A stretch of 64,000 nucleotides of DNA from Squalus acanthias. Its lineage: Eukaryota. A program made the position numbers and the translations under genes. Below are positions 16,808-64,000 of the stretch, one piece after another (the first letter of the stretch is position 1; each line of letters starts with the position of its first letter). Location of the stretch: positions 121,522,001 through 121,586,000 of the forward strand of contig CM059431.1 in assembly GCA_030390025.1 (NCBI GenBank). Direction: 5' to 3'. The notes under the pieces are model-generated. The model made no database searches and was not told the origin of the DNA. It saw only the letters and a list, made by a program, of their open reading frames with translations.

Positions 16808-19800
16808 AGGGGTAGTGGTTGCCGCTCGGTTGCATTGTTTTTTTCAGTGCAATTCAACCGAAATCAGCTTAACCCTCGCAAAAGTTCGCAGAATTTTAAG
16901 CGCAAATTACGTTCAGTGCAACTCGGGTTGCTGTGATCTTTTGCGCTAGTTTAAAAACCATTGCGCCAGAAGCCGGCCCGGCCCCCAAAACTGGCCACAC
17001 CTCCGGGGTGAATAATCACCATTGGGAGTTTCTGCTAATTGTGTCATTTGCAGGCCTTCGAAGAGGCTCTAAAACTTATGCTGGTTCTTTTGGGAGCAAG
17101 GACACAACTCGGCACGTTTTAAAAGTTTTGGAATATAATAATTTTTTTAATTTAATAAAAAACTGACTACTGTACCCCAATATAACTAGCAAATGGTGCT
17201 GTATAGTTTTTGAAAGTCATTTTCAGTGATTTAAAATCAGGTTACTCACAGGTGGTGGATTAACACAGTGATTAAAAATGCTTATTTATTGTGAGAAACC
17301 CATTTTCAGCTTTATTAATCAGCTGCACCAAGTTATCACTCTTAAATATATCAAGCAATATTTTTTTAAACTAAAGTTTTTTTTTAAATCCTGTTGTAAA
17401 ACATTGCTCCATTCCACTGGTTCATGGCAGATTTTGCTTTCGGCGATATGCAAATGAGTTTGAGTGGAAACTCGAGTAAAAATAACACTTCTCCAAATTG
17501 GCGCAATTTTGGGCGCAATTTGCGCCCAGATCGCCGATTGCGCCCAAAGCAAAAACTCTCCCCCTAAATATTGTGCACAGATCTGGCTTCCATATTACAT
17601 CAATATATAGAGGCACTAAAAAAGGTGTCAAAAAAATTGATAAGGATGATACCAGAACTGAGAGATTAGCCTAGAAATTCGTGGCCACCACAAGAGTTGC
17701 CAGTGTCATCGCGACCTCGGGTTAATGGCCGCTGAAAATGGTCGAAGTGGTAGAAGAGAAAAATTTGCGCCAGGGACTAGAGATTTTTAGCCCAGCGCTA
17801 ACTCACCATGTACCGGCCTCCTGGTGGTGTTAGTGCAGGCATCGGTAGTGTAGTTGGCGTCCAGAAGCAGTGTTCCATCTTCCAACAGCCTCTGGAAGTG
17901 AGGCAATGAGTTCACTAGGCATTGTGGGACATTTAAAGGGCAATGCACTAAAAGGGCAATGCCTTCTGAACGAATAAAAATTAAATTGAAGTAAAAAAAA
18001 ATGCAGTTTTCAGCCCTTACTGCCTTTAAAAAAAAACATTGAAAAGAAGTCTCAAATGGGAGTCTTCAGCTCTTAAAGCTGAATTCCCTTCCACATCTCA
18101 AAAAATGGGCAAAGTGCTTCAGCAATAACACAAATGGCTCAACAAGCCAGGGAAGGGGCACCCAGGGTCTCGCACACAGCACTCCAGCTTTGTGCAGGGG
18201 GTCAACACTACAAGAGAGGTCTTCTACCCACAGGGGCCAGGAGGCCCTCCAGAAAGAACAATATGGGACCACATCACCGAAGCCATCACTGTCAGCAGTG
18301 TCATGCCCACCACCTTGCTCCAGTGCCTAAAGACACTTCATGACCTCAGACCGCTGGTCAAGGTCAGTGAATTCATCTTCAAAAGCTGTCTACTACCAAC
18401 TGAATCAAAAGCCTCACACACTGCTCAATGCACGACTCTATTCCCCCCCAAACACTCACCTACCAATCACGAGGCACACCTCCCATTCCTAGCCTCACCT
18501 CACCCCCATGGAGGAGATGGTGCAGGCTATTCTTGACATGTGCATGGCTGAGTCAGTGGTGGGGCTGAAATCATACAAGTTGCTGGTATCCTCATACGTT
18601 ATCCTCCTTTTCACACACATCTCTTGCTTTCCCGCCCTCCCCTCACCAAAATTCCACCCTTGTGCGTTCCTCATTCCACACACACAAGAAATGCAGTCTG
18701 CCCAGCCAATGGTTGACCAAGAAGAGGGAAAGGAGAGTGAAGAAGAAGAAGAAGAAGAAGAAAGAAGAAGAAGAAGAAGAAGAAACACCATCACTCGATT
18801 TGACACTCCCAGCCACCAGCTTCTCAAGGTAGACAAGTAAGGCCATTTGCAGTGTATCCCACTGAAAGTCAGCAGCCATGCTGCAGCCACTGAGGTAGGG
18901 TAAGATTTGGATCACAGGTCACACACAGATTACCCAAAGGGTCTTAGGAGTTGTAAGGCTTTTTATTAGAGAGCTACAGTTTAAGCATAACTCAGATAAT
19001 ACTACATGCGATTGAAATAGATACAGTAGACATACAACCCGTGACAGCTGAGGGCGATCTATGGCCCTGGAATGGAACAAAACGGACGGTGAGGCAGTAC
19101 GGTGGTCTAGGATTGGGTGGATTCCTGCAGTCTGTGGCAGCGGTCACTTCTGTTGGGTCGTCCCTCGAGCTGTTGGAGGTGTTAGGCCGTCAGCCACCTC
19201 AGAGGCTAAACTTGACCAAGGTGTTAGGCCGTAGCCACCTCGGGGAATCCATCGCCCCTAACTGCCTGTTTTCCTCTCTCGGTCATCTGTTTTTATACCT
19301 TATTTCGATGGGTTCATGGATACCTGGTGTCAATCATTTTTACCCATCTCATCGTCCAATTACAAGGGAGAGGCTTCCAATGATAGCCCCCTCCCAGCCT
19401 CATGAGGTCATTTTCCTCCTTATCTCTGTTCTAAATGTCTTGTTGCCCTCTCATAGACAGCTTGTTTATTCTACAGCTCTTTACTGCATCCCTTATCGGG
19501 CCTAGCTATGCCCACTCGAAGGCCTGTTTTTGTGTTCTGAGCTTGTAATTCAGCTCTCTGCACAGTTATTTTTCTGATCTGACTGGTATATTTCTGTGTC
19601 ATCAACTTAGACAAACTGCTGATCTAGGGAACCTGTAACAGACTATTATTTCTTTCAATCCACGATTTCTTACATCTCCCCACCTTGGAAAGGAAATATC
19701 CTTATTGACTTCTCACAATCGGCTCTTGACTAATCTAGTTAGTTCTTATTGCTCTCTCAACTTGGGCGTTAGTTAGTAGGGAGTCTCGAAAATGAAGAAA

Positions 19801-20040
19801 TACCCCTTCCTTACAGTCCATTCCATTGAGGGGGAGGAGCAACCTCTGACCCCTTATTCAAATTCAATTCACTGTTCCGGTGTTCCAATTCTGCCCCACC
19901 TGGGGTATCCTCTGTTTCATCTATCTTTCCTGATCTCATCCCGCCTGGGGTCCCCTCTGCGTTGCTTCGGATCTTCTCTTTCAGTGTGCTCAATTAATTT
20001 GTCCATGCTGGTTAGTCATAGGCATGAGTACACAATTGGC

Positions 20041-20520
20041 TTGTGCAACAAAGTCTTACTACAATGGTTACATATATCAAATACACTATCATTACAAGTT
20101 GGAGAACTACCAGAGTGTGTGAAATAATATGAACCTAAGAGTGTGCTAATATATTAAGCCCAATATCCCACCAGTGTGAATTATTCCCTATGCTGCCAAT
20201 TTCAATATCTATTCTCGAGTTGTCTTGCTCCAAAACATAAAAATGCTTTAGGGAGGAGCTCAGTCGCATCACAAGCTCACTGAATCCCTCAGGCAACAGG
20301 GGAATGTTATACCTAATTGTGCCACATAATTGTGCAGCTCATACTTAAGTGTCTAATTTACTGTCAGTTTCACCTGAGCATACGTTTTGATATTGAGTAA
20401 AACATGTTGGTTGATGTGACAGGTCCTGTTAGACCCGTAAAGCATGGTAGTTGTGGTAGTAGTGACACTGGAAGCACCACCAAAACCACCTCATACTGGA
20501 TTCGTACTGGTTTTTTCCAT
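20041..20520 (-). pseudogene. env: Env (F-like fusion protein) C-terminal remnant with stops and a frameshift
   Basis: Hand translation: ...VKLTVN*TLKYELHNYVAQL/YNIPLLPEGFSELVMRLSSSLKHFYVLEQ...HWWDIGLNILAHS*VHIISHTLVVLQLVMIVYLIYV aligns with the env C-terminus at ~48675-48975. Confidence 0.8.
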
Positions 20521-22711
20521 GCTCTGTTATCTACAAAACACAATTATTACAGTTACAAGTTATAATTCAGTCTTACAATCATTTCAAGCGACATTACAGT
20601 TTAACATCTAATCAACAAGTCATGGACTTAAAAGATTCTCCAGATCTCTTTTACTCGTATCCATCTTGTGGATAAATCTTGCTAAACATGATTTCTCCTT
20701 AGCCCTCAATTCTCCCAATCCAAATTCCATGTAACTCTCTGCTTCAACTTCAATTTCAATCCCTCTAACAGGTACCAGTGTGTTTAACTCTATTCTGATT
20801 GTTTCATTAATTAGATAGTTTCTCGATGAAGTATGTGGCAATGCTTTAAAAGTTGTCTCACTCTCTTGAGCCACATTAACCATTTCATGTCTTGCTGTTG
20901 CCAAGTAACTGAGCATGTCTGAGACCCGTTCTTCAGTGCAGATTCAACACACATTTCCAGATGGTAATTGCTTCATACGTAACAAATCACTTTTGCACAC
21001 TCAATATCATGCCGCACGTGCCATCCGATACAAGCCATTCTCGGGCTTTCAGGTATCTTATCAAAAGATTATCTGGAGATCTTTGCTCATCTTCCACCGC
21101 ATGGTTTTGATGTCTTGGGTAGTGGCCGGACTATCAAATTCAGTTTTCTTAAAAGGTTCATTATAGGCAGGGACACAAATGTCTCCAAGAGAAAGCTATC
21201 AATTTACTATTCGTAGCTACACTTTCCTGACTTTCACTAGAAAGTTTGGAAAATCCCCATTTGATGGTGTAATTCTCCTGTTTCTATCTTACACCCTCAA
21301 TCACTTCCTCTCTTCATTTTACACATCCCATTAATTACCATTCATATCTCATTCATGAGCCCTGGAGGAACTTTACTGTCCAGTACAATATTTAAGATAG
21401 AAAACATAGATCAAACGTTTTCACTTGGTCCAAGTTATTAACACTTTTTATTTATCATTATTTCAGAGGATCTTTTATTTCCCCAAAAGTAACCCAATAG
21501 ATTGTGCCTGGGTCCATTTTGTCATTTCAAAATTATCCCAAAATCCAAACAGCAGTACTGTTGGACTGACAGGTTTTGTCAATGTTCAATTTCATTTCTA
21601 TCAATTTATCTTATCAATTCCAATTTCAGAAACAAGTGATTCCCAGGCTAGGTGGTTTACATGTTGTTTTAACATTAGAGACAGAAGTGCTGCAATTAGT
21701 TTACAAGGATCTTCCATATAACAAAAGAAAGCAGAGAATCCATTGTGGCTCTGCTTAAGAGCCCAAGGGGTTAATTTATCAAATCATAATTTTCCTTCTG
21801 TCACTGTGGGGAAATATTAAATTAAAATTAAGAAACTTAAATTGAATAATGTCCAATATCTTTAAATTTCATTCAGCAATACTAAAGTTGTTGCTTGGTG
21901 AACTTAAACAGCTGTCAGTTGAAAGGGTTAACTCCTTTGCAGGTTTTTACGAAGGCGAAGCGAAACATTGTCATGTGTACGCAATTGCGTCACTTCACGT
22001 AATTTTTTTTAAAAAACTTCCCCAATCGAAAAAAACAGTTGGGTTTTCACAATTTAATAGATTTGTTACGTTCAATAATTCCAATCTAATTCAGACCAAT
22101 ACTATATTAATGAAACACAGAACAGATAAAACAAAACAAAATAGCACATGCTTGCAGAAAACAGTAAATTACGTCATATTTCTTATTGTCCTTTCTTCAG
22201 ATGCCTTTCCAAATGATTGTAAAAGCACTGAATACAACTGGAGAAAAATTAGTTTTTCACATTTAAATAAATCAATTCAAACTGCTTTGAAAATTTCAAC
22301 ATAGCAACCGCGACTCCAAGGTTAAATCTTAGACTGAAACTTATTCTTTTATCAAACAAATTTGTTATTCTTCTCAGTTTTTCCATTCCAGCTTAACTTA
22401 AATTGTAGTTCCAAGTTTTTTTCCAATTCTTTGCTGAGTTTTCAGATTGGTTAGCCTGCAACTTAGGTTTTTTCCCCTTCTCTCTCTCCACTCTCTCTCT
22501 CCTGCACTTTATGCTTCACCTCTTTCAGGCTATCTATCAACTGTTCCTGGTGATATGCCAACGCCATTGTATTTCTGGTATTACCTTTAGCAAACTCTCT
22601 CCCGCTCCCTTCTTTCAGAGAGAAAAGTATTCAGTCTAAGCAATGATCACGTGCGTTTGACCAAGTCCCTCCGGTCCCCACAACCGGAACCTTACAACTC
22701 CCAACTCTGTG

Positions 22712-22729
22712 ATCCCACTTCTGACACCA
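22712..22729 (-). promoter_or_regulatory. Primer binding site, tRNA-Leu
   Basis: TGGTGTCAGAAGTGGGAT on the minus strand, 1 nt from the 5' LTR; complement of the vertebrate tRNA-Leu(CAA) 3' end. Confidence 0.85.
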
Positions 22730-23708
22730 CTGTAAGATTCGGGTCACAGGTCACACACAGATTACTTAAAGGGTCTTAGGAGTTGTAAGGCTTTTTATTA
22801 GAGAGCTACAGTTTAAGCATAACTCAGATACTCCTTCATGCGATTGAAATAGATACAGCAGACATACAACCCTTGACAGATAAGGGCGATCTACGGTCCT
22901 GGAATGGAATGAAACAGATGGTGAGGCAGTACGGTGGTCTAGGATTGGGTGGATTCCTGCAGTCTGTGGCAGCGGTCACTTCCGTTGGGTCGTCCCTCGA
23001 GCTGTTGGAGGTGTTAGGACGTCAGTGACCTCAGAGGCTAAACTTGACCAAGGTGTTAGGCTGTAGCCAACTCGGGGAAGCCATCGCCTCTAACTGCCTG
23101 TTTTCCTCTCTCAGTCATCTGTTTTTATATCTTATTTCGATGGGTTAGTGGATACCTGGTGTCAATCATTTTTACCCATCCTATCGTCCAATTACAATAG
23201 AGGCTACCTATGACAGCCCCCTCCCAGCCTCATGAGGTCATTTTCCTCCTTATCTCTGTTCTAAATGTCTTGCTGCCCTCTCATAGACAGCTTGTTTATC
23301 CTACAGCTCCTTGCTGCATCCCTTATCAGGCCTAGCTATGCCCACTTGAAGGCCTGTTTTTGTGTTCTGACCACGTAATTCAGCTCTCTGTACAGCTATT
23401 TTTCTGACCTGACTGGAATCTTTCTGTGTCATCAACTTAGGGAACCCGTAACAGATTATTATTTCTTTCAATCCACGATTTCTTACAGCAGCACTGCATG
23501 ACATCAGTAGGATAGCCAAAGCCACACACAATGCAGTCACTAAGGGATTGCATAACGGTGATGAGTTGATTTCTTGATGTCATATTGGATGGATAGATGT
23601 ACAAAGTTGGAATGGAAAGTATGCTTTGTGATGGCTTTTATTTCAGCATTGTGGCCAAGAGGAGACTGTGATGGTCAGTAACAGAGGTAAGGTGTGGGAC
23701 AAATTCTA

Positions 23709-38398: not shown

Positions 38399-40065
38399 TG
38401 TAGAATTCGCAATATATCGCAATTTTATTAATAAGGAGAAAACACAGAGTTTCGTTCAAACAGCTTTTATTTCAGTAGAATGCTGGCAGGTTTAAAGTGG
38501 ACACAAGCAGCCTGTAAAATGGCCACCGCACCTCGTGACAGAACATTCTAGACTTTTCAACAGGCAGACAAGATGGCGTTCCAATAAACATTTGTGCAAG
38601 ATCGATTAAGATTCAGCACAGTGAAGATAATACACGAGACATTATGGGTTTGCAGTATACACATAGATACTGAAATCGGTCTCCCAGGTACAAAGGAAAG
38701 CCATTGTACCGAGTAATCAAACCCATCCAAAAGACATTAATATGTAAAATCCCAACGACTCTACGATGAGAGAGCCGTTAGCAGGTAGTTATACAGGACA
38801 CTTGGAAGCCCCAAACCCCTCCAGGGAGAACACCGACCGATTTAACAATGGGAGAAATATTAACAGGTACTCAGACATTTACGAGTAGCCCCGAAACCCA
38901 TTAAGAACGGAGATCACCCATACAAGACATTTGAGCGCCAAACCCTAAACAAAAGAATGGACATTATAGTTGGGCGGGAAACGGAAGATTTTGCACTATA
39001 ATTGCAGGCTCCAAACCGTCCATTTTTTCTCTTGCTGCTCTTATCATCGTGGCTGCTCCTGTGCTCTTATCCGGTCGCTTCGTAACCTCGTGGCTGCTCC
39101 TGTGTACTCGTAGTTGGGCTCGCTTCTGCTTGCCTGTTGCCTCTTCTGAAAAGACTGTTGAACTTTCTGATCCGTTCGGATCTACCTCGTGTCGCGTAAC
39201 GAAGACCTATATTGGTAACTGGTATCGGAACCAAAAGGCCCGAGAAGAGATGAGATGAGATGAGATGAGAAGAGAGGAAGACCATATCCATCGCCACAAT
39301 CAGTAAATCCCGACCGCGCCTGTAGGTCGATTATCCAAGTTTTTCCTTGCCAGGAAGACTTCTTCGAACTTATAACGAAACATATTGCATCGATGATAAC
39401 TGGACTGTGCCCAAAGTAACTGGAATGTGAAAGCCACCAATACAGATCTTCATCACAGCAGACGTTCCAGCCTGCTAGCCGGAGCAGCAGAAGCAAGTAA
39501 ACAAGTGGGACCAGGAGATCTCCTGACCGACACGTGGGTGCTGCGGTGAAAAACATCCGATCAGCTATTCGGAATTTCTCCGAGTTATCACGAGTGGTGA
39601 GCATGAGTCTCGAAATCCTACGAATCTAGTTTAGGATAGATATTGATAGGGGAGGGTTTAAGGATTAAGGATATTTGTAATGTGTGCCCCTATTTATTTT
39701 GTGCCGTTCGTTCCTCGTTTCCCTAAGATCGATTATATAACTGTTTGTAAGATTGTACTGTCATTAATCTGTGCTTATGACATGTATTTCATAATCTTAA
39801 GTATCATGCAATAAAGATTTTCCATTTCGTACCATTCAAACCGAGTCTACATGAGTTTCATCTCCATTACTGCTCTCGCATCTAAGTCCAGTGTCTAGAA
39901 CCGTAAGGGAGAGTGATTCGAACCACTCACAGGTGTGTCTAGTGTTCCCAGACTGGCTGGAGACCAGAACAGGCAACAAGGCCTAGACCCGCACTGACAT
40001 ATAGGCTGCACAGAGCCGCGTGAATCTCACAGGCTGCGAGACACGCAGGGTCAGAATCCCTTACA
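38399..40065 (+). repeat. 5' LTR (1667 bp)
   Basis: TGTAGAATTC...CCCTTACA; about a dozen differences from the 3' LTR; GC box ~38972, TATA-like ~38997, AATAAA 39810-39815. Confidence 0.97.
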
Positions 40066-40069
40066 GAAA

Positions 40070-41881
40070 ATGGCGACCGCGGCAGGACACTGGCAGCGAG
40101 AGGGTAGTGTGTTAGATTTTGGAATGACTGTACAAAATGTTATGCAGGAAAAGATAGCGGATTATGTGTTTGGAAAGGTTAATCTAACTAAGAAATGGAT
40201 AAGTGAATTGTTAGCGGATAAGAGCCCACTAGAGGCAGCTGAAAGGTGGACAGATAGTAAAGAACATAGAAAGACACTTGAGAAAGCAGTCTGGCTTATG
40301 TGTTACAAAAGGCAGGTTCAGATTTCAAACCAGACCATTACAGCGCTAGTAGCTCGAATCAGTCATTTAGAGGGAGAAATGGAGGAGAAGGTTTCTGGAG
40401 GGGAGGTGCTCATTAAGAATTTAAATGAGTTACACCAAGAAAGCCAGGAAGTCTCCAGTCACCTTAAAACAAGGATAGATTATCTCGAATGCCAGGTCAC
40501 TGAGGCAAAATTGAATGAGAGCAGGTTAAAGGAAAGATGTAACCGCCAAGCTGCCCAGATAAGAACTCAAGAAGAGAGCTTGACCGGGGTTAGGGCGGCA
40601 TATAAGTTGGCCCTTGAGGATAAGTTTCAGGGAGCCGATCATAGCGCCTGCCAAAGGGAGATAGAGCACCTCAAAAAGGCCGTGAACAATGCGAACGGCA
40701 TGGTGTGCCTTATCAATCCGTCGGCGCACCAGCCGCTAGTAAATGAGAGATTTAGAAAATCCCCACCAAGTAAAGCAGAAGAAGTAGTAGTCACTGCGCC
40801 CTCCGCGCCACCCAGCTATTCAGAAACCTGGGTTAGGGAGGAAGCAATGGAAGAAACAAAAGAGCCCATTGAAAAAGAAGTAGGAAAGGGATCGTTATAT
40901 CCAGTAACGGGTATTAAAAGGGGCCCAAGCAGAAACGGTGGGGAAGAACCGGGGGATCTCCTCGGACAGCTGGTGTTGCCTCACAGTTCACATCAGCTGA
41001 GAGCTATGATAAATCACGTACGGAAGCTGACCGAGACAGACGACCCTTCCGTACATTTCAGAGAAGTTGAGCAAGCCGCAGCCATTAACGGCTGCGATGA
41101 TGGGGAAACAGCAAAAATGCTGCTGTTCTCATTAGACAGCTCGGTCCTTCAGTGTCTCTCAGGCGAGAGCAAGAGGGGAACCAAGAGTTATGAGGAATTA
41201 AAGAATGAGGTCCTGGAAGTGTTGGGGGCGAACGACGAAGGTCCGTTTGCTAGAGTGGGACAGACAGTGCAGATGGAGGGAGAACCCCCGAAGGTTTTTG
41301 CCGACAGGCTGTGGCCAGTATATGAGCGCAGCTGTCTAGGTGCGCCCGAGCGCGAAGATGTGGAAGGTTTAGCTTTAACTCATTGGCTTAGGTGCATAAT
41401 AGCCAACAGTTTACCAGCCGTCAGAGAGCAGGCAAAAGCATGGTTTGATCCCAATGACCCCAACATTACGGAAGAGTCGGTCTTGAATCGACTCACGTTA
41501 GGTTATCGCAATATAAGGGGTATGGCAACACGTCCCCTTAAGGGAAGAGTACATGAGGTACGACCCGCAGCCCCGTATCAAAGAGAGTGGCATCAGGAGG
41601 GTAATCGCGCCCCACAGGCAGGTAATGCTTGTTACGGGTGTGGGAAGACAGGGCACTGGCGCAAGCATTGCAGGAACCCTTGGAAGGATTCCAAGGATAA
41701 AAATCCCGCGGTCCGAGCCCAGGCGCCTGTCCCGGCTAAGGAAGCCAAGGCACCCACCCCTCCTGACGACCTCGAAGCAGTGTTAGGAGCCATGCGCAAG
41801 CTGGTCTTGAATGCGCGTGGACAGGTGGCGGTCGCAACCGGCCCCGTAGGTGCCGCAGGACCGTCTAATAGTACCCCATGA
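40070..41881 (+). CDS. gag: Gag polyprotein (603 aa): N-terminal coiled coil, PSAPPSY late domain, capsid-like region, CCHC zinc knuckle
   Basis: Open ORF directly after the LTR; CYGCGKTGHWRKHC at 41630-41671; PSAPPSY at 40799-40819; start could alternatively be the ATG at 40124. Confidence 0.92.
   Translation: MATAAGHWQREGSVLDFGMTVQNVMQEKIADYVFGKVNLTKKWISELLADKSPLEAAERWTDSKEHRKTLEKAVWLMCYKRQVQISNQTITALVARISHLEGEMEEKVSGGEVLIKNLNELHQESQEVSSHLKTRIDYLECQVTEAKLNESRLKERCNRQAAQIRTQEESLTGVRAAYKLALEDKFQGADHSACQREIEHLKKAVNNANGMVCLINPSAHQPLVNERFRKSPPSKAEEVVVTAPSAPPSYSETWVREEAMEETKEPIEKEVGKGSLYPVTGIKRGPSRNGGEEPGDLLGQLVLPHSSHQLRAMINHVRKLTETDDPSVHFREVEQAAAINGCDDGETAKMLLFSLDSSVLQCLSGESKRGTKSYEELKNEVLEVLGANDEGPFARVGQTVQMEGEPPKVFADRLWPVYERSCLGAPEREDVEGLALTHWLRCIIANSLPAVREQAKAWFDPNDPNITEESVLNRLTLGYRNIRGMATRPLKGRVHEVRPAAPYQREWHQEGNRAPQAGNACYGCGKTGHWRKHCRNPWKDSKDKNPAVRAQAPVPAKEAKAPTPPDDLEAVLGAMRKLVLNARGQVAVATGPVGAAGPSNSTP
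40071..40088 (+). promoter_or_regulatory. Primer binding site, tRNA-Arg(TCG)
   Basis: TGGCGACCGCGGCAGGAC is the 18-nt complement of the vertebrate tRNA-Arg(TCG) 3' end ...GTCCTGCCGCGGTCGCCA (recalled sequence). Confidence 0.88.
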
Positions 41882-44800
41882 CTAGAACCGGCGCAGCCCG
41901 TCTACCTGTGTCCGCTTAGCTATGACGCGTGGAGGCGACCTGTGGTGGAGATGGAGGTAGAGAAACAGAAGGGTAGTTATTTGTTGGACACGGGAGCTTC
42001 TTGCACCATAATCCATACAGATAACCCTTTCGACTCGCCGCTATCTACCAAGGTCCCATTCACGTTAGCAGGGTTCACAGGAAAAGAACAGGCTGGCACG
42101 TTTTCCCTTCCGCTATCCATTCGTTTAGGAACACTTCGCCTTAAGTGGAAGTGTATACTGATGGCATGGCAAAAGGGGGGTGGAAGAGGTATCCTCGGGT
42201 CCGATCTCCTAGCGGGACACGGGATCCTCGTGGACCTCAGAAATCACTGTCTCTGGGGGGCTAAAGGTGAAGAAGGCGAGGTAATAGTGATTCCGGGGGA
42301 GGAAGAAACAGAGGTCCTGTGTACCGTACAGCCATCCGGAGGCTACGACCTCAGGCTTATGGTCGCAGATGTCCCAACGGACATGCAAACGTACGTGTCA
42401 GATAATATGCACGCGTTTGCAACCCACAAGCACGATTGTGGGAGAGTGGTCGGGTTTGAGGTCAGCGTAGATGGGGACCCCATGACCCGACCCCAAAAGC
42501 AGTATAACTTCCCCAAAGAAGCAGAACCCGATATGGAGACAGCAATGTCCTCCTTGGTGCAGCAGGGCGTGTTGAGGCCAATAGCCACACACGTAAACTC
42601 CCCATTATGGCCGGTTAGGAAGCCGGATAATTCGTGGAGGGCCACGGTGGACTACAGAGTCCTTAACAGTAACATTCCCGCCTGCGCGCCCACAGTAGCA
42701 GCAGTTGCTGACCTAATAGGGAGCATCCCAGCGTCCGCGACCACGTTCACGGTGCTGGATATCTCGAACGGTTTTTGGTCCATCCCGCTGCGGCGAGAGG
42801 ACCAGTACAAGTTTGCCTTTACTTTCAAAGGACAACAGTACACATGGAACTGTCTGCCACAGGGTTTCCACAATAGCCCCAGTATTTTTCATCAGTGTAT
42901 GGCAGGAAGTTTAAAGGAGTTTAGTCAGCCCAATCAGATAGTACAGTATGTGGATGATTTGCTCCTATTTACGGACTCAAGGGAGGAGCACGGACCACTA
43001 CTGGACGAGTTATTGGAGCTGTTAGCGAGAAAGGGTTTTAAAATAAACCCTAAGAAAGCACGTATCGGTCAGCGGGAAGTAAAGTTCCTGGGACTGACCA
43101 TACGCGCTGGGGAAAGAGCCATAGACAAAGCAAGGAGGGAGTCGGTGCAAGAATTACCGATTCCCAACAACGTAAGGGGTGTGAGGTCCTTCTTGGGACT
43201 GACCGGTTACTGCAGGGATTTTATCGAAGATTATGCGGCCACAGCGGCGCCGCTCCTCCGACTCCTCCATAAGGGGGTGGAGTGGCTTTGGGACGAGGGC
43301 TGCCAAGCAGCCTTCGAGAAGTTAAAAAGGGATCTGCAGACCGCGCCAGCCTTAGGGGCCATAGATGGGGGGAAGGAGTTTTTCCTGGAGGTAGCTGCCA
43401 GCGGAGACAGCTTAAGCGCCGTACTGCTCCAAGAGCGTCACGGCAAGCTGAGGCCGGTTGTCTATTCATCCAGGGTATTAACGGATGTGGAGAGAAGTTT
43501 CTCCAATTGCGAAAGGCACCTTTTAGCCACGCATTGGGCTGTGAAAAGATCAGCGATCTTCACAGGGCTCTCTCCCATCACTCTCCTCACACATCACACA
43601 CCAACTAAGATGCTTCTGGATGGGAGGATTAAAGACGGGACCGTAAGCAGCGCACGCATTGCGCGTTGGACCCTTCTTCTCTCCCAGTTGGATCTTAGAG
43701 TAAAAGGTCTTTGCGAGCCAAGGCTTGCGGCCAATCTGGTATACCCCGGTACAGCCCACCGGTGTTCGGTGGAAGGGGTGTGGGACGTCAACATAGGTTT
43801 ACGGGCCGGGATACATCCCACTGGGCGCGAGATTTATGTTGATGGGTCTAGCACAGTATCTGCTGGCGAGCGACTCACAGGGTGTGGAGTTTATGACCCT
43901 GCGGCAGACCTTGCCCTGGCGATCAAGCTCCCTAGCACCATGAGCGCGCAGCAGGCCGAGCTGTCTGCCGTGGTGTACGTTGTGACCCACCCAGACATTT
44001 TCCCAACCCCATACACGATTTGCTCGGACAGTATGTTCACCTGCAATTCGTGTACGGAATACCTGGCCATTTGGTCCCGCCGCGGATACACCTCCGCGGA
44101 CGGGCGACCTTTAACGGTGAAGCCCTTGCTGGAAAAGATCTTAGCAGCAGCAGTGGGGGAGGAAGGAGAGATTTTCATCCATAAGGTGAAAGCTCACTCC
44201 TCCACAGAGCCCCGTGGGGAGGGCAACCGGCAGGCGGATGCGCTAGCCAGGGAGGGTGCCCGCGACGGCACTTTCTGGAACCCCTATAGGACCGGACCCA
44301 TAGCAGCGGTCCGAGGCGGGGACGGGAATCCCGGGAACACCAGGGTAGCATTGCCCCTAGACCTCAAGACCGTCCAAACCCAGGATCCCGCCCTAAAAGC
44401 AGTCCTAAAAACGATTGCTGAAGGGAGGCAGGTAGAAGGTCCGTACAGTACGGCAACCCTCTCAGTTAAGGAAGGCATGCTGTTCCGCGAGGAGCAGTGG
44501 GTTGTGCCACAGCAGCACAGGAGGGAATTCCTCCAGTTGGCTCACGAGGGACCAGGGGCAGGGCACCCCGGGCCCGAGGTTACCTGGCAACGGGTAGAGC
44601 AAGCGGGATGGTGGCCAGGGCTCAGGGAACAAGTCCGCGAGTTCTGTGCAAACTGTCTTGTGTGCGCTGCAAACAACCCAGACCCCCAGAAAAGGAAGGT
44701 GCCCATGGGACACGTAAGAAGGGTAGAGGGACCATGGCAGTCGATACAGATCGACTATATAGGACCCCTGCCCACCACCCAGGGAGGTTATAAGTACTGC

Positions 44801-46378
44801 CTCGTCCTGGTGGATGTGTTTTCCAAGTGGGTGGAAGCCTTCCCTTGTCGAACAGCTACGGCACTGGGTACAGCAAAAATCTTGGTCCGGGAAGTGTTCT
44901 CGCGGTGGGGACTCCCCCGTTTTGTGGAGTCAGACCAAGGGAGTCATTTCACCGGCCAGGTGATGCAGAACACCCTCATGCTTTTGGGCATTGAAGGGAA
45001 GTGGCACGTAGCACACAATCCCCAGTCATCCGGGATTGTTGAACGTATGAACCGGACCCTGAAGGAGAAATTGAGGAAAGAGACTAGGAACTCGCCCCAA
45101 AAATGGGCGGAGGTTCTGCCTTTAGTCCTCATGGGGGTCCGGGCCAGTCAGTCGAAAAGTACGGGGTATTCCCCGCACGAGGTGATGACTGGGAGGCTCA
45201 TGCGAACCCCCACCCATGTGCTAGCGCCGGTGCTCACTGAGGGTCAGCTCCAAGAAATAAGCAGGGACAAGTTCGCCCAGACCCTCTTGGAGCGCCTAAA
45301 ACAGGTGTATGAGCAGGCGGCTGGGAACATGGGAAGGCAGCATCAGGGCAATCGCTTGTTGCTGGAACCCCGCAAAACGCGGGAGTGGGAAGTAGGAGAC
45401 CAGGTCATGGTCAGAAACTACGCCAGAGTAGGGAGTCTGGAACCACTGTATATGGGACCCTACAACATTGTAGACAAGGCGAGTCCCATGGTTTACGCCG
45501 TAAAAGTACCACGGCGCACTAAGTGGTTCCACATAAACCAATGCAAACTGTACCAGCCAGGTGCGCAGGGGAAAACTACAGGGGTAAATCCCGCCAATGG
45601 GAGAGCACAGCCCCAGGTAGGACCACAAGGCACACAGGCAGGCATAGCAGCTTGCATCAGGGGAAGGGACATCCCGGACGATCATGCAGCGTTTTTCTGG
45701 AATTGGGGGTTAGATGAGGAAGAATTCAGGGTACCCGGGTCAGATGAGGATAGTGCAGATGAGGATAGTGATGACGACGGGTGGTTTCGGAGGAACGGTC
45801 CCTTTTACGATATGGAGGGGACGGGGGCTGCAGGTAGAGATCCACACAGGGTGGACACACGAGCTGCAGGTCCCGAAGACAGGAGGGAGGAGCTAGAGGA
45901 GGCAGGGCCAGCCGCTATGGGAGCACAGAGAGTACCGGTGTGGCTCCCAGAGATGTGGCCGCCCGCTTTGAACGTCCAGTCCTCAGGGGAGGCAGAGATC
46001 ACGAGTGAAGGGCCGCCTGCTGGGCCGAGCAGGGCGGAGCCACGAACTGCCAGCCCCGAGGTTAGGGAGGCGGAGTCAGCGGAGGCGGAGCCAGCGACTG
46101 TGATGGAACCCCAGGTCATCCCGATGGAAGTCTCGGAACCCGGTCCGTCCGTCACGGAAACCCCGCCCATAGCAACTCCCCGTAGGTCAAGTAGAGAACC
46201 CCAGCCCAGGAGGATGTGGTCATGTCCCCAGACTGCCCCAAGGCGAAAATTTAAGGTTAAGATAACCCAGATACAGACCGGCCACATCGCAGCAGTAACA
46301 GGCTGCGGCAGATCAGAGGGAAGGGTCAGTGCCCTCCCACCGTCGGGAAGAGCTCGCAGCAGCCTTCTCAGAATTTAA
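41882..46378 (+). CDS. pol: Pol (protease, RT, degenerate RNase H tether, RNase H, integrase, C-terminal extension), probably made as Gag-Pol by UGA readthrough
   Basis: LLDTGAS; LPQGFHNSP, YVDD; FFLEVAAS..(tether); YVDGS/SAQQAEL/SDS/KAHS/GNRQAD; HHCC; IDYIGP, SDQG, SSGIVERMN; GPY. Frame is open from the codon after the gag stop. Confidence 0.95.
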   Translation, partial: LEPAQPVYLCPLSYDAWRRPVVEMEVEKQKGSYLLDTGASCTIIHTDNPFDSPLSTKVPFTLAGFTGKEQAGTFSLPLSIRLGTLRLKWKCILMAWQKGGGRGILGSDLLAGHGILVDLRNHCLWGAKGEEGEVIVIPGEEETEVLCTVQPSGGYDLRLMVADVPTDMQTYVSDNMHAFATHKHDCGRVVGFEVSVDGDPMTRPQKQYNFPKEAEPDMETAMSSLVQQGVLRPIATHVNSPLWPVRKPDNSWRATVDYRVLNSNIPACAPTVAAVADLIGSIPASATTFTVLDISNGFWSIPLRREDQYKFAFTFKGQQYTWNCLPQGFHNSPSIFHQCMAGSLKEFSQPNQIVQYVDDLLLFTDSREEHGPLLDELLELLARKGFKINPKKARIGQREVKFLGLTIRAGERAIDKARRESVQELPIPNNVRGVRSFLGLTGYCRDFIEDYAATAAPLLRLLHKGVEWLWDEGCQAAFEKLKRDLQTAPALGAIDGGKEFFLEVAASGDSLSAVLLQERHGKLRPVVYSSRVLTDVERSFSNCERHLLATHWAVKRSAIFTGLSPITLLTHHTPTKMLLDGRIKDGTVSSARIARWTLLLSQLDLRVKGLCEPRLAANLVYPGTAHRCSVEGVWDVNIGLRAGIHPTGREIYVDGSSTVSAGERLTGCGVYDPAADLALAIKLPSTMSAQQAELSAVVYVVTHPDIFPTPYTICSDSMFTCNSCTEYLAIWSRRGYTSADGRPLTVKPLLEKILAAAVGEEGEIFIHKVKAHSSTEPRGEGNRQADALAREGARDGTFWNPYRTGPIAAVRGGDGNPGNTRVALPLDLKTVQTQDPALKAVLKTIAEGRQVEGPYSTATLSVKEGMLFREEQWVVPQQHRREFLQLAHEGPGAGHPGPEVTWQRVEQAGWWPGLREQVREFCANCLVCAANNPDPQKRKVPMGHVRRVEGPWQSIQIDYIGPLPTTQGGYKYCLVLVDVFSKWVEAFPCRTATALGTAKILVREVFSRWGLPRFVESDQGSHFTGQVMQNTLMLLGIEGKWHVAHNPQSSGIVERMNRTLKEKLRKETRNSPQKWAEVLPLVLMGVRASQSKSTGYSPHEVMTGRLMRTPTHVLAPVLTEGQLQEISRDKFAQTLLERLKQVYEQAAGNMGRQHQGNRLLLEPRKTREWEVGDQVMVRNYARVGSLEPLYMGPYNIVDKASPMVYAVKVPRRTKWFHINQCKLYQPGAQGKTTGVNPANGRAQPQVGPQGTQAGIAACIRGRDIPDDHAAFFWNWGLDEEEFRVPGSDEDSADEDSDDDGWFRRNGPFYDMEGTGAAGRDPHRVDTRAAGPEDRREELEEAGPAAMGAQRVPVWLPEMWPPALNVQSSGEAEITSEGPPAGPSRAEPRTASPEVREAESAEAEPATVMEPQVIPMEVSEPGPSVTETPPIATPRRSSREPQPRRMWSCPQTAPRRKFKVKITQIQTGHIAAVTGCGRSEGRVSALPPSGRARSSLLRI

Positions 46379-46421
46379 AGGGGCCGCCCTGAGAACGGGC
46401 GGCACTGTAAAGTTATAGTTC

Positions 46422-46507
46422 TAAGTTTTAAGTTTATAGTTCAAGGCTAAGTTTTAAGTTTATAGTTCAAGGTTAAGTTTTAAGTTTATAGTTCAAGGTT
46501 AAGTTTT
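46422..46507 (+). repeat. Tandem repeat, 26-bp unit x3 plus partial, between pol and env
   Basis: TAAGTTTTAAGTTTATAGTTCAAGG(C/T) starting at 46422, 46448, 46474, 46500 (partial). Confidence 0.9.
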
Positions 46508-46715
46508 ATGTTTTATTAAGGTTAAGTTTGTAGTGTTTTTAACAGAAAACGATAAAATGATGGGAGCTTTAAAGATAGGTTTAGTTGAAGTTTATTCAGC
46601 GAACGTTGAAGTTTACGTGAGGCGAGGTCAGGGGACCCGCTCACCCTTCACAAAAGCCAGAGACTCTTGCGAGGCTGGCTACCTCATTCTATCTGATCAC
46701 AGGAACCAAGGAAGG

Positions 46716-49067
46716 ATGGAACGAATTCTAGTATTGCTCGTGGCAATCGGATGTGGATTGGCCTATCGAGGCCGCACCAAGGATGTCGTGGTGTTTGGAT
46801 GTTCCGGGGACACGGCCCCCATCGCGGTGGATGGGACCGGAAGACGGGAGGCAGAGGAGACCAGCACCTATTTCCACAAGGGAAGGTGGCCAGGATGGCT
46901 GGGAACGAACTCAACGGAGTATTCCAGCACATCGGGGTTTGCCTACAAAGAGACTTCTTTACTGTGCCCCAAAGTAAGGATCATCGCACCCAGGATCAGC
47001 GTCACCGTCGGCAAACGGATTTGTTTGACTTGTAGTGGGAAGGTCCCATTGAGCCGATGGTGGTGGCTGCGAAAGCTGAGCAAAACTATGAGGAACTCTT
47101 CGGTCGAGTGGGAACGACTGGGTAATAATACCCATCGGACAATTACGGGGACAGACGGACAAGTGAAAGTCTGTTGGGACAAATGGTGGGAACCGGATGA
47201 GGGAATTTATGTATGTATGTGGGGGTCAAAGTACGTTTGCCCCAAAGGCATCTCCATATTTTTTATTAATCAATGGCAGGATAACGGACAGGGGATGAGG
47301 TGGGATGCGAGCACCAGGGGGTGCGGAGCCCCATTCTCCCCGATCCCAGTAAATGCCACTGAGCTCATTACGCGCCCACGCAAAGCCCCGCCCACGATTC
47401 CGGTGGTTCTAGCTGAGGAAGAAGGGTGCCCTAAAACTAGTAAGGGACCCGGGAATGGTTTGGTACTGGTCCCCACAGACCAGATACTATTTCAGGGGGT
47501 ACATTACGCGGTGGCCTCGGTGATTTTAAATCTCACTGAGGTGCGGTTACCAGAGTGGTGCCCCAAAAAGACGGAACAGTTGTACCAGGTCCTGTTGACC
47601 AAGATGTTCAGACAATTTTACGAATTCGATTTCGCGGAAATTGATAAAACAAGTTTGTACACCGCACCACAGGAAGTTTTGGATCAAGTAGGGAGGCAAA
47701 GAAGGGGTTTGGTGAACGATGCGTTCACTGCTTTTAACACAGGTACATCTGTGGTCAACGCTCTAGACAGTGTGGAGCTGCAGACCCAGATTAATGGTTT
47801 AAAGACACAATTAAAGGACATTCTAACAGATGAGAATAAAGTGGTAGGGTCGGGTCTACACGAGGACCAAGCCATGACCCTCCATTTAAAGGAAATTATA
47901 GCAGAGTTGGAGAAACATGCAAAGACGGTAAATGCCCTGATTAGGGAAGATCGGAATGCATCCGATCAAGCTGCGCAGAACGAGGTGTGCGTGCTTTACG
48001 GGGCGTGGTTACTGGGCGAGGGCCGCAGTAATTTGGAGGATTTAAAACAAGGTTTGGTTCCGTCCTGGATAAGTAACAAACACCTGCGGGCGCTCCACCC
48101 TTTTCAGAACGCATTAAGTCCATGCCAGCTCAGGCTAGCTTCAGAAGCTTACCCAGTCCCCGTGGACTGCGGACGATCAAACCATACTATTATGGGAATA
48201 GTATTACGTATGCCGGTTTTGGGCGACACAGCAAAGCCCGCCCCGGTGTATCGGGTAGAGAACATTGGTGTCATTCAGGGGGGAGCCCACATTCGCTATG
48301 CAGCGGTTCCACCTTACGTCATCCGCTGGGAGCAAACGATGACAGGTACAGATCTCTCTGGTTGTCGTGGCAGGGGAGCACACATAATACTATGCCCCCA
48401 GCACTTGAATGCCTTTTTAACACCACAGTGCGGGTTCAGAACGACTGGCGCCAAGTCCATGAATTGCACCATGGAGGCAATGGCACAAGATCATGTGCCT
48501 CCGCAGGTAGCATACATCGGGGGTGGAACATATTGTGTTACCACTGCAGCGCAACACTACCAGCATGGAAACCGTAGCCGGTGTCCGGTGAGTGACAGCA
48601 GTTTCTGTTTTAAACCCAGGGCGGAAGTTCAAGTAGCACAACAGCGAATTATCCCAATCCCTGAACCATCCACTGTTCATCTCACAGTAAAAGAGAATTT
48701 CACCGACTTGCAGCGATTCGTCGCGCATTTTGGATACCTCATTCCCCCTCTCCCTGAACACCTCACCAAGCTTTTGAAAGCCGTCGCGGTGTCACAGAAA
48801 CATTTTTACACATTAGAGCAGAAAACTGTCGAAATAGGAACAGACATTCTGGATATAGTAGTTCCACCGTGGTGGAATCTGTTCACTAATATTGAAGTAC
48901 CTTCATGGATCAGAATAGCCTCCCACATTTTAGTCGTATGCCAAGTTTTCATTGTAGTGTACCTATTGGTTGTACATTGTAAAAGAGACAAACGCCTCAC
49001 CAAGCATGAAAACACGGGAGAGTGGCGAGAACGTTACGTGCGCGTGCACGATGAGAGCACCGTGTAA
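46716..49067 (+). CDS. env: Envelope glycoprotein (783 aa): signal peptide, Ig-like domain, class I F-like fusion protein, TM, short tail
   Basis: MERILVLLVAIGCGLA signal; furin site RQRR|GLVNDAF (47694-47705) then heptad repeat; Cys-rich region; TM IASHILVVCQVFIVVYLLVV; candidate acceptor cacAG|G at 46702. ORF track starts earlier at non-ATG 46533. Confidence 0.9.
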   Translation: MERILVLLVAIGCGLAYRGRTKDVVVFGCSGDTAPIAVDGTGRREAEETSTYFHKGRWPGWLGTNSTEYSSTSGFAYKETSLLCPKVRIIAPRISVTVGKRICLTCSGKVPLSRWWWLRKLSKTMRNSSVEWERLGNNTHRTITGTDGQVKVCWDKWWEPDEGIYVCMWGSKYVCPKGISIFFINQWQDNGQGMRWDASTRGCGAPFSPIPVNATELITRPRKAPPTIPVVLAEEEGCPKTSKGPGNGLVLVPTDQILFQGVHYAVASVILNLTEVRLPEWCPKKTEQLYQVLLTKMFRQFYEFDFAEIDKTSLYTAPQEVLDQVGRQRRGLVNDAFTAFNTGTSVVNALDSVELQTQINGLKTQLKDILTDENKVVGSGLHEDQAMTLHLKEIIAELEKHAKTVNALIREDRNASDQAAQNEVCVLYGAWLLGEGRSNLEDLKQGLVPSWISNKHLRALHPFQNALSPCQLRLASEAYPVPVDCGRSNHTIMGIVLRMPVLGDTAKPAPVYRVENIGVIQGGAHIRYAAVPPYVIRWEQTMTGTDLSGCRGRGAHIILCPQHLNAFLTPQCGFRTTGAKSMNCTMEAMAQDHVPPQVAYIGGGTYCVTTAAQHYQHGNRSRCPVSDSSFCFKPRAEVQVAQQRIIPIPEPSTVHLTVKENFTDLQRFVAHFGYLIPPLPEHLTKLLKAVAVSQKHFYTLEQKTVEIGTDILDIVVPPWWNLFTNIEVPSWIRIASHILVVCQVFIVVYLLVVHCKRDKRLTKHENTGEWRERYVRVHDESTV

Positions 49068-49505
49068 TCGGAAAATGGCGTCACTCCCGCTCGCCACGTG
49101 CGCCGCGGAAGCCTGTACTCATATAAGATTTTCAGAGATTGTAAATACGTTGGGAACTCGACATGTTTTAAGAGTTGGTGTTGATTATTTTGGTGATGGT
49201 GTTACAGTTAAAATTGATTGTTTGGTTTTGGGTTCTGTTTCTCCTTTCCCTGAATAAAAGATGAATATACAGGTGATACGAGAGGCATCGGCCTGGTTAC
49301 GCCGGGAAGGAAAACAAGTGGTGTAAGTTTAAGGGCAAATAATGCCTACGGTGATATAAAATGTAATTTTCTTGGGAAATGAGGACGACACAGAGACCCT
49401 AGCTAGGTTAAAGTTATGGGATTAATTTGCTGGATTCGGAGAGAAATCGAGATAATATTGCTCACCACTATGATTTTTGATACGATAAGCGGAGTTATTC
49501 GCATC

Positions 49506-49517
49506 AACAGGAGGGAC
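49506..49517 (+). promoter_or_regulatory. Polypurine tract
   Basis: AACAGGAGGGAC abutting the 3' LTR; identical in the sister provirus (54842-54853, minus). Confidence 0.8.
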
Positions 49518-51182
49518 TGTAGAATTCGCAATATATCGCGATTTTATTAATAAGGAGAAAACACAGAGTTTCGTTCAAACAGCTTTTATTTCAGTAGAAT
49601 GCTGGCAGGTTTAAAGTGGACACAAGCAGCCTGTAAAATGGCCGCCGCACCTCGTGACAGAACATTCTAGACTTTTCAACAGGCAGACAAGATGGCGTTC
49701 CAATAAACATTTGTGCAAGATCGATTAAGATTCAGCACAGTGAAGATAATACACGAGACATTATGGGTTTGCAGTATACACATAGATACTGAAATCGGTC
49801 TCCCAGGTACAAAGGAAAGCCATTGTACCGAGTAATCAAACCCATCCAAAAGACATTAATATGTAAAATCCCAACGACTCTACGATGAGAGAGCCGTTAG
49901 CAGGTAGTTATACAGGACACTTGGAAGCCCCAAACCCCTCCAGGGAGAACACCGACCGATTTAACAATGGGAGAAATATTAACAGGTACTCAGACATTTA
50001 CGAGTAGCCCCGAAACCCATTAAGAACGGAGATCACCCATACAAGACATTTGAGCGCCAAACCCTAAACAAAAGAATGGACATTATAGTTGGGCGGGAAA
50101 CGGAAGATTTTGCACTATAATTGCAGGCTCCAAACCGTCCATTCTTCTCTTGCTGCTCTTATCATCGTGGCTGCTCCTGTGCTCTTATCCGGTCGATTCG
50201 TAACCTCGTGGCTGCTCCTGTGTACTCGTAGTTGGGCTCGCTCCTGCTTGCCTGTTGCCTCTTCTGAAAAGACTGTTGAACTTTCTGATCCGTTCGGATC
50301 TACCTCGTGTCGCGTAACGAAGACCTATATTGGTAACCGGTATCGGAACCAAAAGGCCCGAGAAGAGATGAGATGAGATGAGATGAGAAGAGAGGAAGAC
50401 CATATCCATCGCCACGGTCAGTAAATCCCGACCGCGCCTGTAGGTCGATTATCCAAGTTTTTCCTTGCCAGGAAGACTTCTTCGAACTTATAACGAAACA
50501 TATTGCATCGATGATAACTGGACTGTGCCCAAAGTAACTGGAATGTGAAAGCCACCAATACAGATCTTCATCACAGCAGACGTTCCAGCCTGCTAGCCGG
50601 AGCAGCAGAAGCAAGTAAACAAGTGGGACCAGGAGATCTCCTGACCGACACGTGGGTGCTGCGGTGAAAAACATCCGATCAGCTTTCGGAATTTCTCCGA
50701 GTTATCACGAGTGGTGAGCATGAGTCTCGAAATCCTACGAATCTAGTTTAGGATAGATATTGATAGGGGAGGGTTTAAGGATTAAGGATATTTGTAATGT
50801 GTGCCCCTATTTACTTTGTGCCGTTCGTTCCTCGTTTCCCTAAGATCGACTATATAACTGTTTGTAAGATTGTACTGTCATTAATCTGTGCTTATGACAT
50901 GTATTTCATAATCTTAAGTATCATGCAATAAAGATTTTCCATTTCGTACCATTCAAACCGAGTCTACATGAGTTTCATCTCCATTACTGCTCTCGCATCT
51001 AAGTCCAGTGTCTAGAACCGTAAGGGAGAGTGATTCGAACCACTCACAGGTGTGTCTAGTGTTCCCAGACTGGCTGGAGACCAGAACAGGCAACAAGGCC
51101 TAGACCCGCACTGACATATAGGCTGCACAGAGCCGCGTGAATCTCACAGGCTGCGAGACACGCAGGGTCAGAATCCCTTACA
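49518..51182 (+). repeat. 3' LTR (1665 bp)
   Basis: Direct repeat of 38399-40065 with two 1-nt deletions and ~10 substitutions. Confidence 0.97.
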
Positions 51183-51819
51183 CATGTTGCACTTTCTCCA
51201 ATGCCTCTATATCCTTTTTATAATATGGAGACCAGAACTGTTCACAATACTCCAAGTGTGGTCTAACCAAGGTTCTATACAAATTTAACATAACTTCAAT
51301 GCTTTTCAATTCTATCCCATTAGAAATGAACCCGTGCTTTGTTTGCTTTTTAAGTGGCCTTCTTAACCTGCATCACTACTTTTAGTGATTGGTGTATCTG
51401 TCCCCCAGATCCCTCTGTTCCTCTACCCCATTTATACACTTATTTTTCGAGGAGTACGTGGCCTTCTTATTCTTCCTACTAAAATGTATTGCCTTACACT
51501 TACCTATATTGAAGTCCTTTTGCCAATTACACACCCATTCTGCAAGTTTATTAATGTCTTCCTGTATTTTGTCTCAGTCCTCCTCTGTATTAACTGTACC
51601 ACTCAATTTGGTGTCATCGGCAAATTTTGAAATTGTACTTCTGATTCCCGAGTGCAAATCGTTTATGTAAATAGTGAGAAGTGGTCCCAGCAGCGATCCT
51701 TGTGGAACACCATTTACCACCATTTGCCAATCCGAGTAACTATCTTTAAATCCGACTCTCTGTTTTCTGTTTCGTAGCCAGTTTGCTATCCATTCTACTA
51801 CTTGTCCCCTGACTTCACA

Positions 51820-62625: not shown

Positions 62626-62712
62626 GATGCGGAGATGCCGGTGTTGGACTGGGGTGGACAAAATTGAGAGGTCGCACAACACCAGGTTATAGTCCAACAG
62701 TTTTATTTGAAA

Positions 62713-62750: not shown

Positions 62751-64000
62751 AGTAAATTGGATACAGAATCGCCAGAGCATATATAGATGGAAAAAAAAAG
62801 CATGTGTACTTTACAATTGCAGACCAATAAATTAAATCATCCTGACTATCTGCCGAGGTGTGATAAAGTTAATTAAGTCAGCCAGGAAGGTACCACATCA
62901 AAAGACATAGCAAGATACAACTGAGACAATGAGGTGTAGTCGCAGGGGTTCCAACGTGTCAAAAGCTGCCGTCTGTATGTAAAACGAAAAGCTTTAAAAA
63001 AAAAATTACTTTTTTACTGGGAAAATGTTTACTTTTTTACTGGGAATCACATCTGTGAACAAGCTAACGACGACTCGAGTCCGGATCACGTCATGTATCG
63101 TGACATAAACCCAAGATCCCGATTGAGACCGTCTTCATGAGTTCGGAACTTGGCTATCAGTTTCTGCTCGATGATTTTGCGTTGTCGTGTGTTTCTAAGG
63201 TTGCCTTGGAGAACGCTTACCCGCAGATCCGAGGCTGAATGTCCTTGACTGCTGAAGTGTTCCCCGACTGGGAGGTAACAATCCTGCCTGGCGATTGTTG
63301 CGCGGTGCTCGTTCATACGTTGTCTCAGTGTCTGCATGGTCTCGCCGATGTACCATGCCGCGGTGCATTCTTTCCTGCAACGTATGAGGTAGACAACGTT
63401 GGCCGAGTCACATGAGTATGTACCATGTACCTGGTGGGTAGTGTCCTCACGTGTGATGGTGGTATCTGTGTTGATGATCTGGCATGTCTTGCAGAGTTTG
63501 CCATGGCAGGGTTGTGTGGTGTCGTGGTCGCTGTTATCCTGAAAGCTGGGTAATTTGCTGCGAACGATGGTACTTCTGAGGTTAGGCGGCTGTTTGAAGG
63601 CAAGTAGTGGAGGCGTGGGGATGGCCTTAGCGAGGTGTTTGTCGTCATCGATGACATGTTGAAGGCTGCGAAGAACATGTCGTAGTTTCTCCGCTCCGGG
63701 GAAGTACTGGACGACGTAGGATAAACAAGCACATGGACTAGCAACTCATCCTGTCTCTGTCCTTCATTTGTTCTACCCACATGTAATACACTTTTGGTGA
63801 CGAGAATGGTATCCCAAAGCCATTTTTAGGGATCGTGGAAGGACACCGTGTTTAACCTTCATGTGGAAAAATTTAAGGTACACAGGAACAGTCACTGTTC
63901 AACGGGATTGGGCCAATCATGGCCGCACCTGCGGGATTCATCGGAAGCCTCGGCATGTATGACTGAGCTCGCGAACCATTCAGTTCTTACATTGAGCGGA

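Follow-up and report, generated by a model that had tools for sequence, protein, structure and literature searches.

The window analysed here is a stretch of 64,000 nucleotides of Squalus acanthias DNA (assembly GCA_030390025.1, contig CM059431.1, positions 121,522,001 to 121,586,000), and all positions below are counted from its first letter. An LTR-bounded element lies on its minus strand at 18899-23487, and its features are listed in Table 1 together with a provirus (provirus A) that serves for comparison only; B0 and X stand for the retrovirus family and the env lineage to which its ends and its env remnant are respectively assigned. The two LTRs of the element are 91% identical. A sequence-only reading of the window had described them as unrelated to those of provirus A, and indeed blastn gave no match at E<1 between either of them and the 1.67-kb LTR of that provirus. 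The same reading had proposed a tRNA-Leu primer-binding site (PBS), which turned out to be perfectly complementary to the 3′ end, with CCA added, of a tRNA-Leu(CAG) gene identified in this genome, where one of the three loci checked held a tRNA. It had also seen no recognisable pol, in agreement with a profile search in eight short copies of the element that gave no gag, RT or pol signal and with the six frames of the window copy, which gave no meaningful Pfam match. Neither Pfam nor profile search recognised a source for about 2 kb of the core, from which the window copy lacks a piece of about 380 nt found in most copies.

Table 1. Features of the window element, with provirus A for comparison.
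Feature	Position	Strand	Remarks
5′ LTR (TG...CA), B0 family	22731..23487	-	R/U5 82% like the commoner B2 LTR; U3 is its own subtype
Primer-binding site, tRNA-Leu	22712..22729	-	Complementary without mismatch to tRNA-Leu(CAG) gene L063 at its 3′ end (with CCA added)
Leader and first 14 codons of B0 gag	22526..22711	-	ATG at 22567; similarity to B0 ends at element base 962
AT-rich non-coding core	20521..22525	-	31-39% GC in copy L006
Broken F-type env tail, assigned to lineage X	20041..20520	-	79% DNA identity to X relic L308
3′ flank, putatively acquired from lineage X along with the env tail	19826..20050	-	76% DNA identity to L308
B0-derived 3′ end and polypurine tract (PPT)	19675..19746; PPT 19675-19686	-	75-83% to L247-L249, 93% to L257; PPT read directly
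3′ LTR	18899..19674	-	Terminal CA now CC; K2P distance to 5′ LTR 0.071
Left 4-bp target duplication, GTAG	18895..18898	+	Empty-site paralogue at 5095-5160
Right target duplication, GCAG, one mismatch	23488..23491	+	Read against an unoccupied copy of the host repeat (5095-5160)
Provirus A (comparison only)	38399..51183	+	gag, pol with two RNase H domains, F-type env at 46503-49067, tRNA-Arg(TCG) PBS

The minus-strand segment 20520-20041 had been read, with stops and one frameshift, as a decayed homologue of the env gene of provirus A (env A), and this homology proved real. When env A was compared with the element by tblastn, its residues 745-824 aligned with 20311-20069 at 42% identity (E 1e-12), and the 58.5 bits of this match lay beyond every control, the maxima being 31.2 bits in 500 shuffles of the DNA (333 of which gave any hit) and 26.9 bits in 500 shuffled env proteins. 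The upstream env piece (GGFGG at 20490) stands in another frame, the segment carrying stops as well as one frameshift near 20315, and an env-family profile scored the two pieces at 53.3 and 12.0 bits. Position 20520 is in the same frame as this GGFGG motif, ten codons earlier. The remnant in the window copy amounts to about 150 codons, comprising the end of the ectodomain, the membrane-proximal helix and the transmembrane segment (TM), and it is homologous to the tail of env A only.

A model of env A, built from a 29-row alignment, has the paramyxo/pneumovirus F fold (pLDDT 73; hPIV3 F, E 5e-11) and also matches walleye epsilonretrovirus and foamy envs, and the Atlas value for its match to F is 0.94. 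Since a PDB sequence search with env A returned nothing, and Pfam did not recognise env A, env C′ or three relatives, the F-likeness of env A rests on fold and Atlas. No longer relative of the remnant was found at E≤1 among 307 candidates of a protein collection, which is weak evidence, and among the 51 hits of env A no relative exceeded 38% identity. A word-indexed search with env A gave only two matches, in skate and sawshark.

The element is one of many. At least 40 matches to its internal region were scored, among them the window copy itself and further copies with roughly 88-92% identity, as were at least 150 matches to the env remnant. The remnant is present in at least 340 copies: one of its 24-mers has 340 exact matches, against 0 for the reversed control. 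These genome searches score the best 40-150 candidates, which leaves room for an unseen provirus with B-type LTRs and a full X env. When loci were chosen by the DNA upstream of the remnant, 29 of 30 carried it and the 30th had it behind an insertion of about 1.8 kb, so it is not a later private insertion into the window copy. The U3 of the window copy retrieved 25 loci, mostly solo LTRs, and those with internal sequence were the same element. The LTR pair of the window copy is 0.071 apart, which is more than in four B2 copies (0.022-0.032) or in provirus A (0.007). Public runs under seven organism codes contain at least a fifth of the words of this stretch, hence the family is not limited to one species label; no RNA-labelled run is on record among the runs that contain them, and in four runs guessed to be RNA 29-30 of the 30 bins of the core are covered, from which, without a silent control, we conclude nothing about expression. 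A variant with a 653-nt skip over the whole remnant also exists; we rejected splicing as its source and took it for a DNA variant because an identical joint occurs in a run of DNA type (X1).

Longer members of the family (L221, L223, L224, L226-L229) indicate where its ends came from. They have the same leader, run on through gag and protease into the beginning of RT, and then enter the core at the same junction, and the deletion forms are graded, some keeping gag, protease and half of RT and others only 14 gag codons. A search with the gag-PR-RT protein of the longer members recovered, among 20 fetched loci, three complete proviruses (L247-L249, for which the family is named B0) that have this LTR, the Leu PBS, the leader, a whole but broken pol and an env. 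The window copy is 68-73% identical in DNA to these proviruses over LTR and leader, through gag codon 14, and its LTR, PBS and leader come from the canonical retrovirus B0. The B0 proviruses have an F-type env of their own that is only 26-27% like the remnant. Two B0 relatives that lack env and bear pol (L255, L257) are candidate helpers. The B0 pol aligns across the region of the tether and second RNase H of provirus A.

The remnant has a different history. In a 29-row env-tail tree, drawn from earlier 46- and 33-row trees after short, redundant and long-branch rows had been dropped, all its copies formed one clade (99/99) that grouped with the envs of A and of C/D/E (100/100) and lay away from those of B0 and G. 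In AU tests, for which groups were named after the earlier trees had been seen, a joint clade with B0 env was rejected (p 4e-7), as was one with env A (p 9e-4; identity 34%), and a grouping with the wider A group was not (p 0.08). By identity or tree we dismissed as donors A (34%), C/C′/D/E/F (32-37%), B0 (26-27%), G (30%) and H (27-33%). We place the remnant in a third lineage of F-type envs, X, of which it is the last 150 or so codons. Its own clade and the LTR divergence of the window copy (0.071, against 0.007 in A) mark it as an older, separate env lineage, and because the native env of the window LTR family differs, it moved between LTR families. Of the two origins proposed at the outset, then, the older second lineage keeps its age and separateness but loses its loki-like character to the RT trees described below, and the env exchange between LTR families stands, only not as an exchange with provirus A.

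Approximately 90 older copies keep a stretch of 15 codons that the window copy has lost, and the env homology begins at one same point in all 30 older copies examined. Five diverged loci were fetched, and one of them, L308, proved to be a broken provirus with a scrap of pol (connection/RNase H) 52-63% like the G, B0 and H pols, a piece of the F2 region of env, and an env tail and 3′ flank that are 76-79% identical in DNA to the window copy; the stretches fetched held no LTR, RT or integrase, and the rest of the core was not found. We read L308 as a relic of the donor lineage X, which its pol scrap would make a relative of the B0 group. As a single broken locus, it could itself be recombinant, and with neither LTRs nor RT nor integrase it does not fix the backbone of the donor.

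The same AT-rich core of about 3 kb, or its 3′ part, was found in six LTR families, namely the B0 type and five more, and PBS types were read for four of the six. In a class I ERV backbone (7 copies) it is accompanied by a 612-nt LTR of that family's own, a matrix-like gag start, a TLV_coat env (Pfam E 1e-12) and a PBS that we take to be tRNA-Gln. A backbone of family C (8 copies) has, besides the core, the leader of that family, scraps of pol and a second env tail, and in a family H backbone (13 copies; tRNA-Arg(CCG) PBS) the core sits inside H gag, the complete H proviruses having an env of their own that is 27-33% like the remnant. In seven of eight family G loci the remnant replaces env, and one further family (L107, L231), with what is presumably a tRNA-Lys PBS, carries it too. 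Among 55 distinct copies (B1, 5; B2, 21; class I, 7; C-type, 8; H-type, 13; unlabelled, 1), the front-end labels cluster on the DNA tree, with 9 changes compared with a mean of 30 after shuffling. The recombinants have junctions common to many loci, LTR pairs 0.013-0.047 apart and 4-bp target site duplications (TSDs) where these were read; given LTR pairs of its own and these duplications, each recombinant was copied after it had formed.

Such breadth raises the question of whether the core is more than cargo. Its env tail may hold a cis-acting RNA element that serves export, dimerisation or packaging; a retroviral RNA that acquired this element would be copied better within the germ line, so that the module was selected and spread across families. 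We regard this idea as rather unlikely. Approximately 300 nt (element bases 3514-3812 of L006) are common to all six backbones that bear the remnant, and family G, which lost its env, acquired this piece. Of 22 windows, the 150-nt one at the start of these 300 nt folds with the lowest z (-2.2 on average in 10 related copies), compared with -1.7 to +0.8 for the same region in seven other envs. However, the mean z is only -1.4 over 97 copies, the consensus fold, at -6.7 kcal/mol, is weak and counts 4 two-sided changes to 23 broken pairs, the copies are related to one another, and one window in 22 is a post-hoc pick. Since the loci were mostly found with the remnant as query, the search itself partly accounts for its occurrence in every mosaic, and the DNA variant in run X1 does without it altogether. 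A separate core piece of about 190 nt, which also occurs in four pol-less C copies, could be taken as further support, yet it is unstructured (folding z -1.5 to +1.6) and missing from the window copy. We are equally doubtful of the stronger form of this idea, according to which the core, acting in cis through a dead F-type env tail, is a selfish RNA module that has entered six or more unrelated ERV families of a shark genome, class I included. If true, the core would improve the intracellular replication of the backbones that carry it, and would be a parasite of these and not a family in its own right, and if the shared segment were the active RNA element it would be a small, testable module.

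A simpler history, in which the window element is the decayed, internally deleted provirus of one older retrovirus and the remnant is what is left of its own env, seems to us very unlikely. One ancestral deletion would predict the single point at which env homology starts in 30 of 30 older undeleted copies, most older copies end in B-type 3′ ends, and the pol scrap of the X relic resembles those of G, B0 and H. Nevertheless, the three complete proviruses of the window LTR family carry another env, the joint clade of remnant and B0 env is rejected, and the X relic has neither a B LTR nor a match to the core upstream of the remnant. Furthermore, in some older copies (L285, L294) the core is followed by another env tail, unlike the first.

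We therefore consider it probable that the window element is a non-coding mosaic of B0 ends and an X env tail, joined by template switching and copied in trans. What we observe is the mosaic build of the element, a native B0 env unlike the remnant, an X relic whose env is longer, the graded deletions, the neutral drift and the presence of the core in five further families; co-packaging, template switching and trans-mobilisation are what we infer from them. The RNA of the element would be transcribed from its LTR and, as passages on general retrovirology suggest (PMC4997597), packaged and reverse-transcribed by the proteins of pol-bearing relatives. Reverse transcription would be primed by tRNA-Leu and integration would produce the 4-bp duplication. 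Template switches in mixed particles, drawn from the same passages (PMC4997597), would give rise to mosaics, and the B0 ends and X env tail were likely joined in this way, by RT switching between co-packaged RNAs. Some mosaics could also have arisen by DNA-level gene conversion between abundant repeats.

The env remnant is most likely a passenger that makes no working protein. We base this on the lack of a signal peptide and of a fusion peptide in it, on a stop before the TM helix common to 25 of 58 copies, and on a pN/pS of 0.80 in frame, which is like the 0.59-0.92 of the five other frames. Selection on the remnant, suggested by a raw pN/pS of 0.72, vanished against the frame controls. Non-autonomous ERVs and env/pol recombination are already known, and in the literature we found no description of this family, of the breadth of the module across families or of this F-type env lineage. 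The mosaics would be a natural record of retroviruses that differ in primer tRNA, RT clade and env type having come together in particles or germ cells of a cartilaginous fish and repeatedly swapped parts. They bear on the movement of env between retroviral backbones and on the disagreement of env and pol trees. Since they also put one more lineage of F-type env on backbones that are canonical and not loki, an F-like env is no ground for calling an element loki.

Lokiretroviruses, some of which carry an extra smc-like gene, are a known group with which provirus A shares two features. An F-type env and a pol with two RNase H domains are features of that group in the portions of PMC7947760 consulted, and provirus A has both, while the window element, itself without pol, shares only the tail of such an env. 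It is nonetheless extremely unlikely that the element belongs to a second lineage of lokiretroviruses or that provirus A was the immediate source of its env. The RTs of A, B0 (5 loci), C, D, E and G lie across a branch with 98-99% SH-aLRT support from gypsy and the eel-type rows P0033/37/47/52, which are near-identical to pol passages in a part of the supplement of PMC7947760. The two RT trees were quick ones with SH-aLRT as their only support (131 rows, and 74 rows of which 61 were kept from the first and 13 were new); their loki side consists of these four eel-type rows, and no labelled SnRV or foamy rows were included. As far as these sequences go, a loki-like label for A or for the window LTR family is not supported. 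An F-related Env is not diagnostic of loki either, given that foamy and walleye envs also have it, the F-like fold matching walleye epsilonretrovirus and foamy envs as well (PMC11468914, in part). A direct gift from A fits poorly with a remnant that is no closer to A (34%) than to C or E (32-37%), quite apart from the AU test. Among the host entries of PMC7947760 consulted, none was a cartilaginous fish (Orectolobiformes: 3 screened, 0), and a section of PMC9040795 gives the renaming of these viruses as lokiorterviruses.

In its manner of existence the window element is best read as VL30-like, a likeness that would be one of anatomy and not of sequence homology. Mouse VL30, in the account excerpted from PMC4859993, has hundreds of copies with intact LTR, PBS and PPT, a 4-bp TSD and no intact gag, pol or env; our family likewise has paired LTRs, PBS, PPT and TSD and many dispersed copies without intact gag, pol or env. 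Several primer tRNAs occur among relatives in both, and the trans mobilisation described for VL30 in those excerpts (PMC4859993) is what we infer here. VL30 differs in having gag and pol scraps and no env, whereas the recognisable scrap of the window element is an F-type env tail; the core described here moves between unrelated LTR families, whereas VL30 varies within one, and the host is a cartilaginous fish instead of a mouse.

Env and Pol trees of fish and amphibian ERVs, cartilaginous fish included, have been reported to disagree through frequent recombination (bioRxiv 10.1101/2021.11.23.469661, in the sections consulted), but those concern gamma-type envs and coding ERVs, and here we have a dead F-type env tail and a non-coding core. 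The SnRV-related class III ERVs, e.g. CmiERV lineage I of the elephant shark, resemble the present elements in being shark ERVs outside class I, judging from extracts of PMC4422223. A search of viral contigs gave no relative of the RT of A and no labelled SnRV/CmiERV reference. Against PDB, the RT of A scored best with 7kse (187 bits), which we take to be foamy virus, then with MLV-type RTs (164-168) and then with Ty3 (122).

The two trees place provirus A differently. In the quick RT tree (74 rows, SH-aLRT support) its RT lies on the side of families B0 and G, and a 98% branch separates it from the RTs of families C, D and E, the very families with whose envs its own env groups in the tree of the env tail (29 rows). 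Judged from these sequence comparisons, the conflict is a putative env exchange, deeper than the transfer of the env scrap into the non-coding LTR element. A second, broken and 5′-truncated copy of env A (55279-57349, minus strand, 91-93% amino acid identity) lies in the window at a distance of 6 kb, inverted relative to the provirus.

The host repeat interrupted by the element (parts at 18618-18889 and 23490-23662) also has an uninterrupted copy in the window at 4871-5311, and because of this copy the TSD could be read. A joint across 19927-20581, corresponding to a variant without the entire env scrap, occurs in one DNA-type run and three guessed-RNA runs.

Pieces of the AT-rich core that carries the scrap occur in other families as well. 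In seven family-G loci (L238-L243 and L245; longest pol ORF 1105 aa, in L245), its 3′ piece sits at the position of the full env in L251. A single family-E element, L132, which has an env of its own, carries the core's 5′ part minus the scrap, and four family-C copies (L126-L128 and L138), largely lacking pol, hold a core piece of about 190 nt. At L110/L154 an A provirus is nested inside an H-type core element, and at L143/L156/L157 an A-like provirus surrounds the 3′ portion of a C-type mosaic, an arrangement that puts three env tails one behind another.

Two predicted host proteins, P0002 and P0159, each contain an env tail from this env group; one (listed first) is a cadherin-related protein, and the other, to judge by a motif, is F-box-like. 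These env tails are probably gene-model artefacts. Motif matches of tRNA-Leu type form a long tandem array at 49.37-49.40 Mb of C13 (1154-nt step), and those of tRNA-Arg type another at 40.5-41.9 Mb of C26 (1623-nt step).

Another ORF of the window is presumably Penelope-like, to go by its motifs, and is 100% identical to its partial repeat across 300-nt stretches.

Window coordinates of the presumed Penelope-like ORF and its partial repeat
Feature	Position	Strand
921-aa ORF with RT and GIY-YIG-like end	59947-62712	(-)
Partial repeat of the 921-aa ORF region	63086-63745
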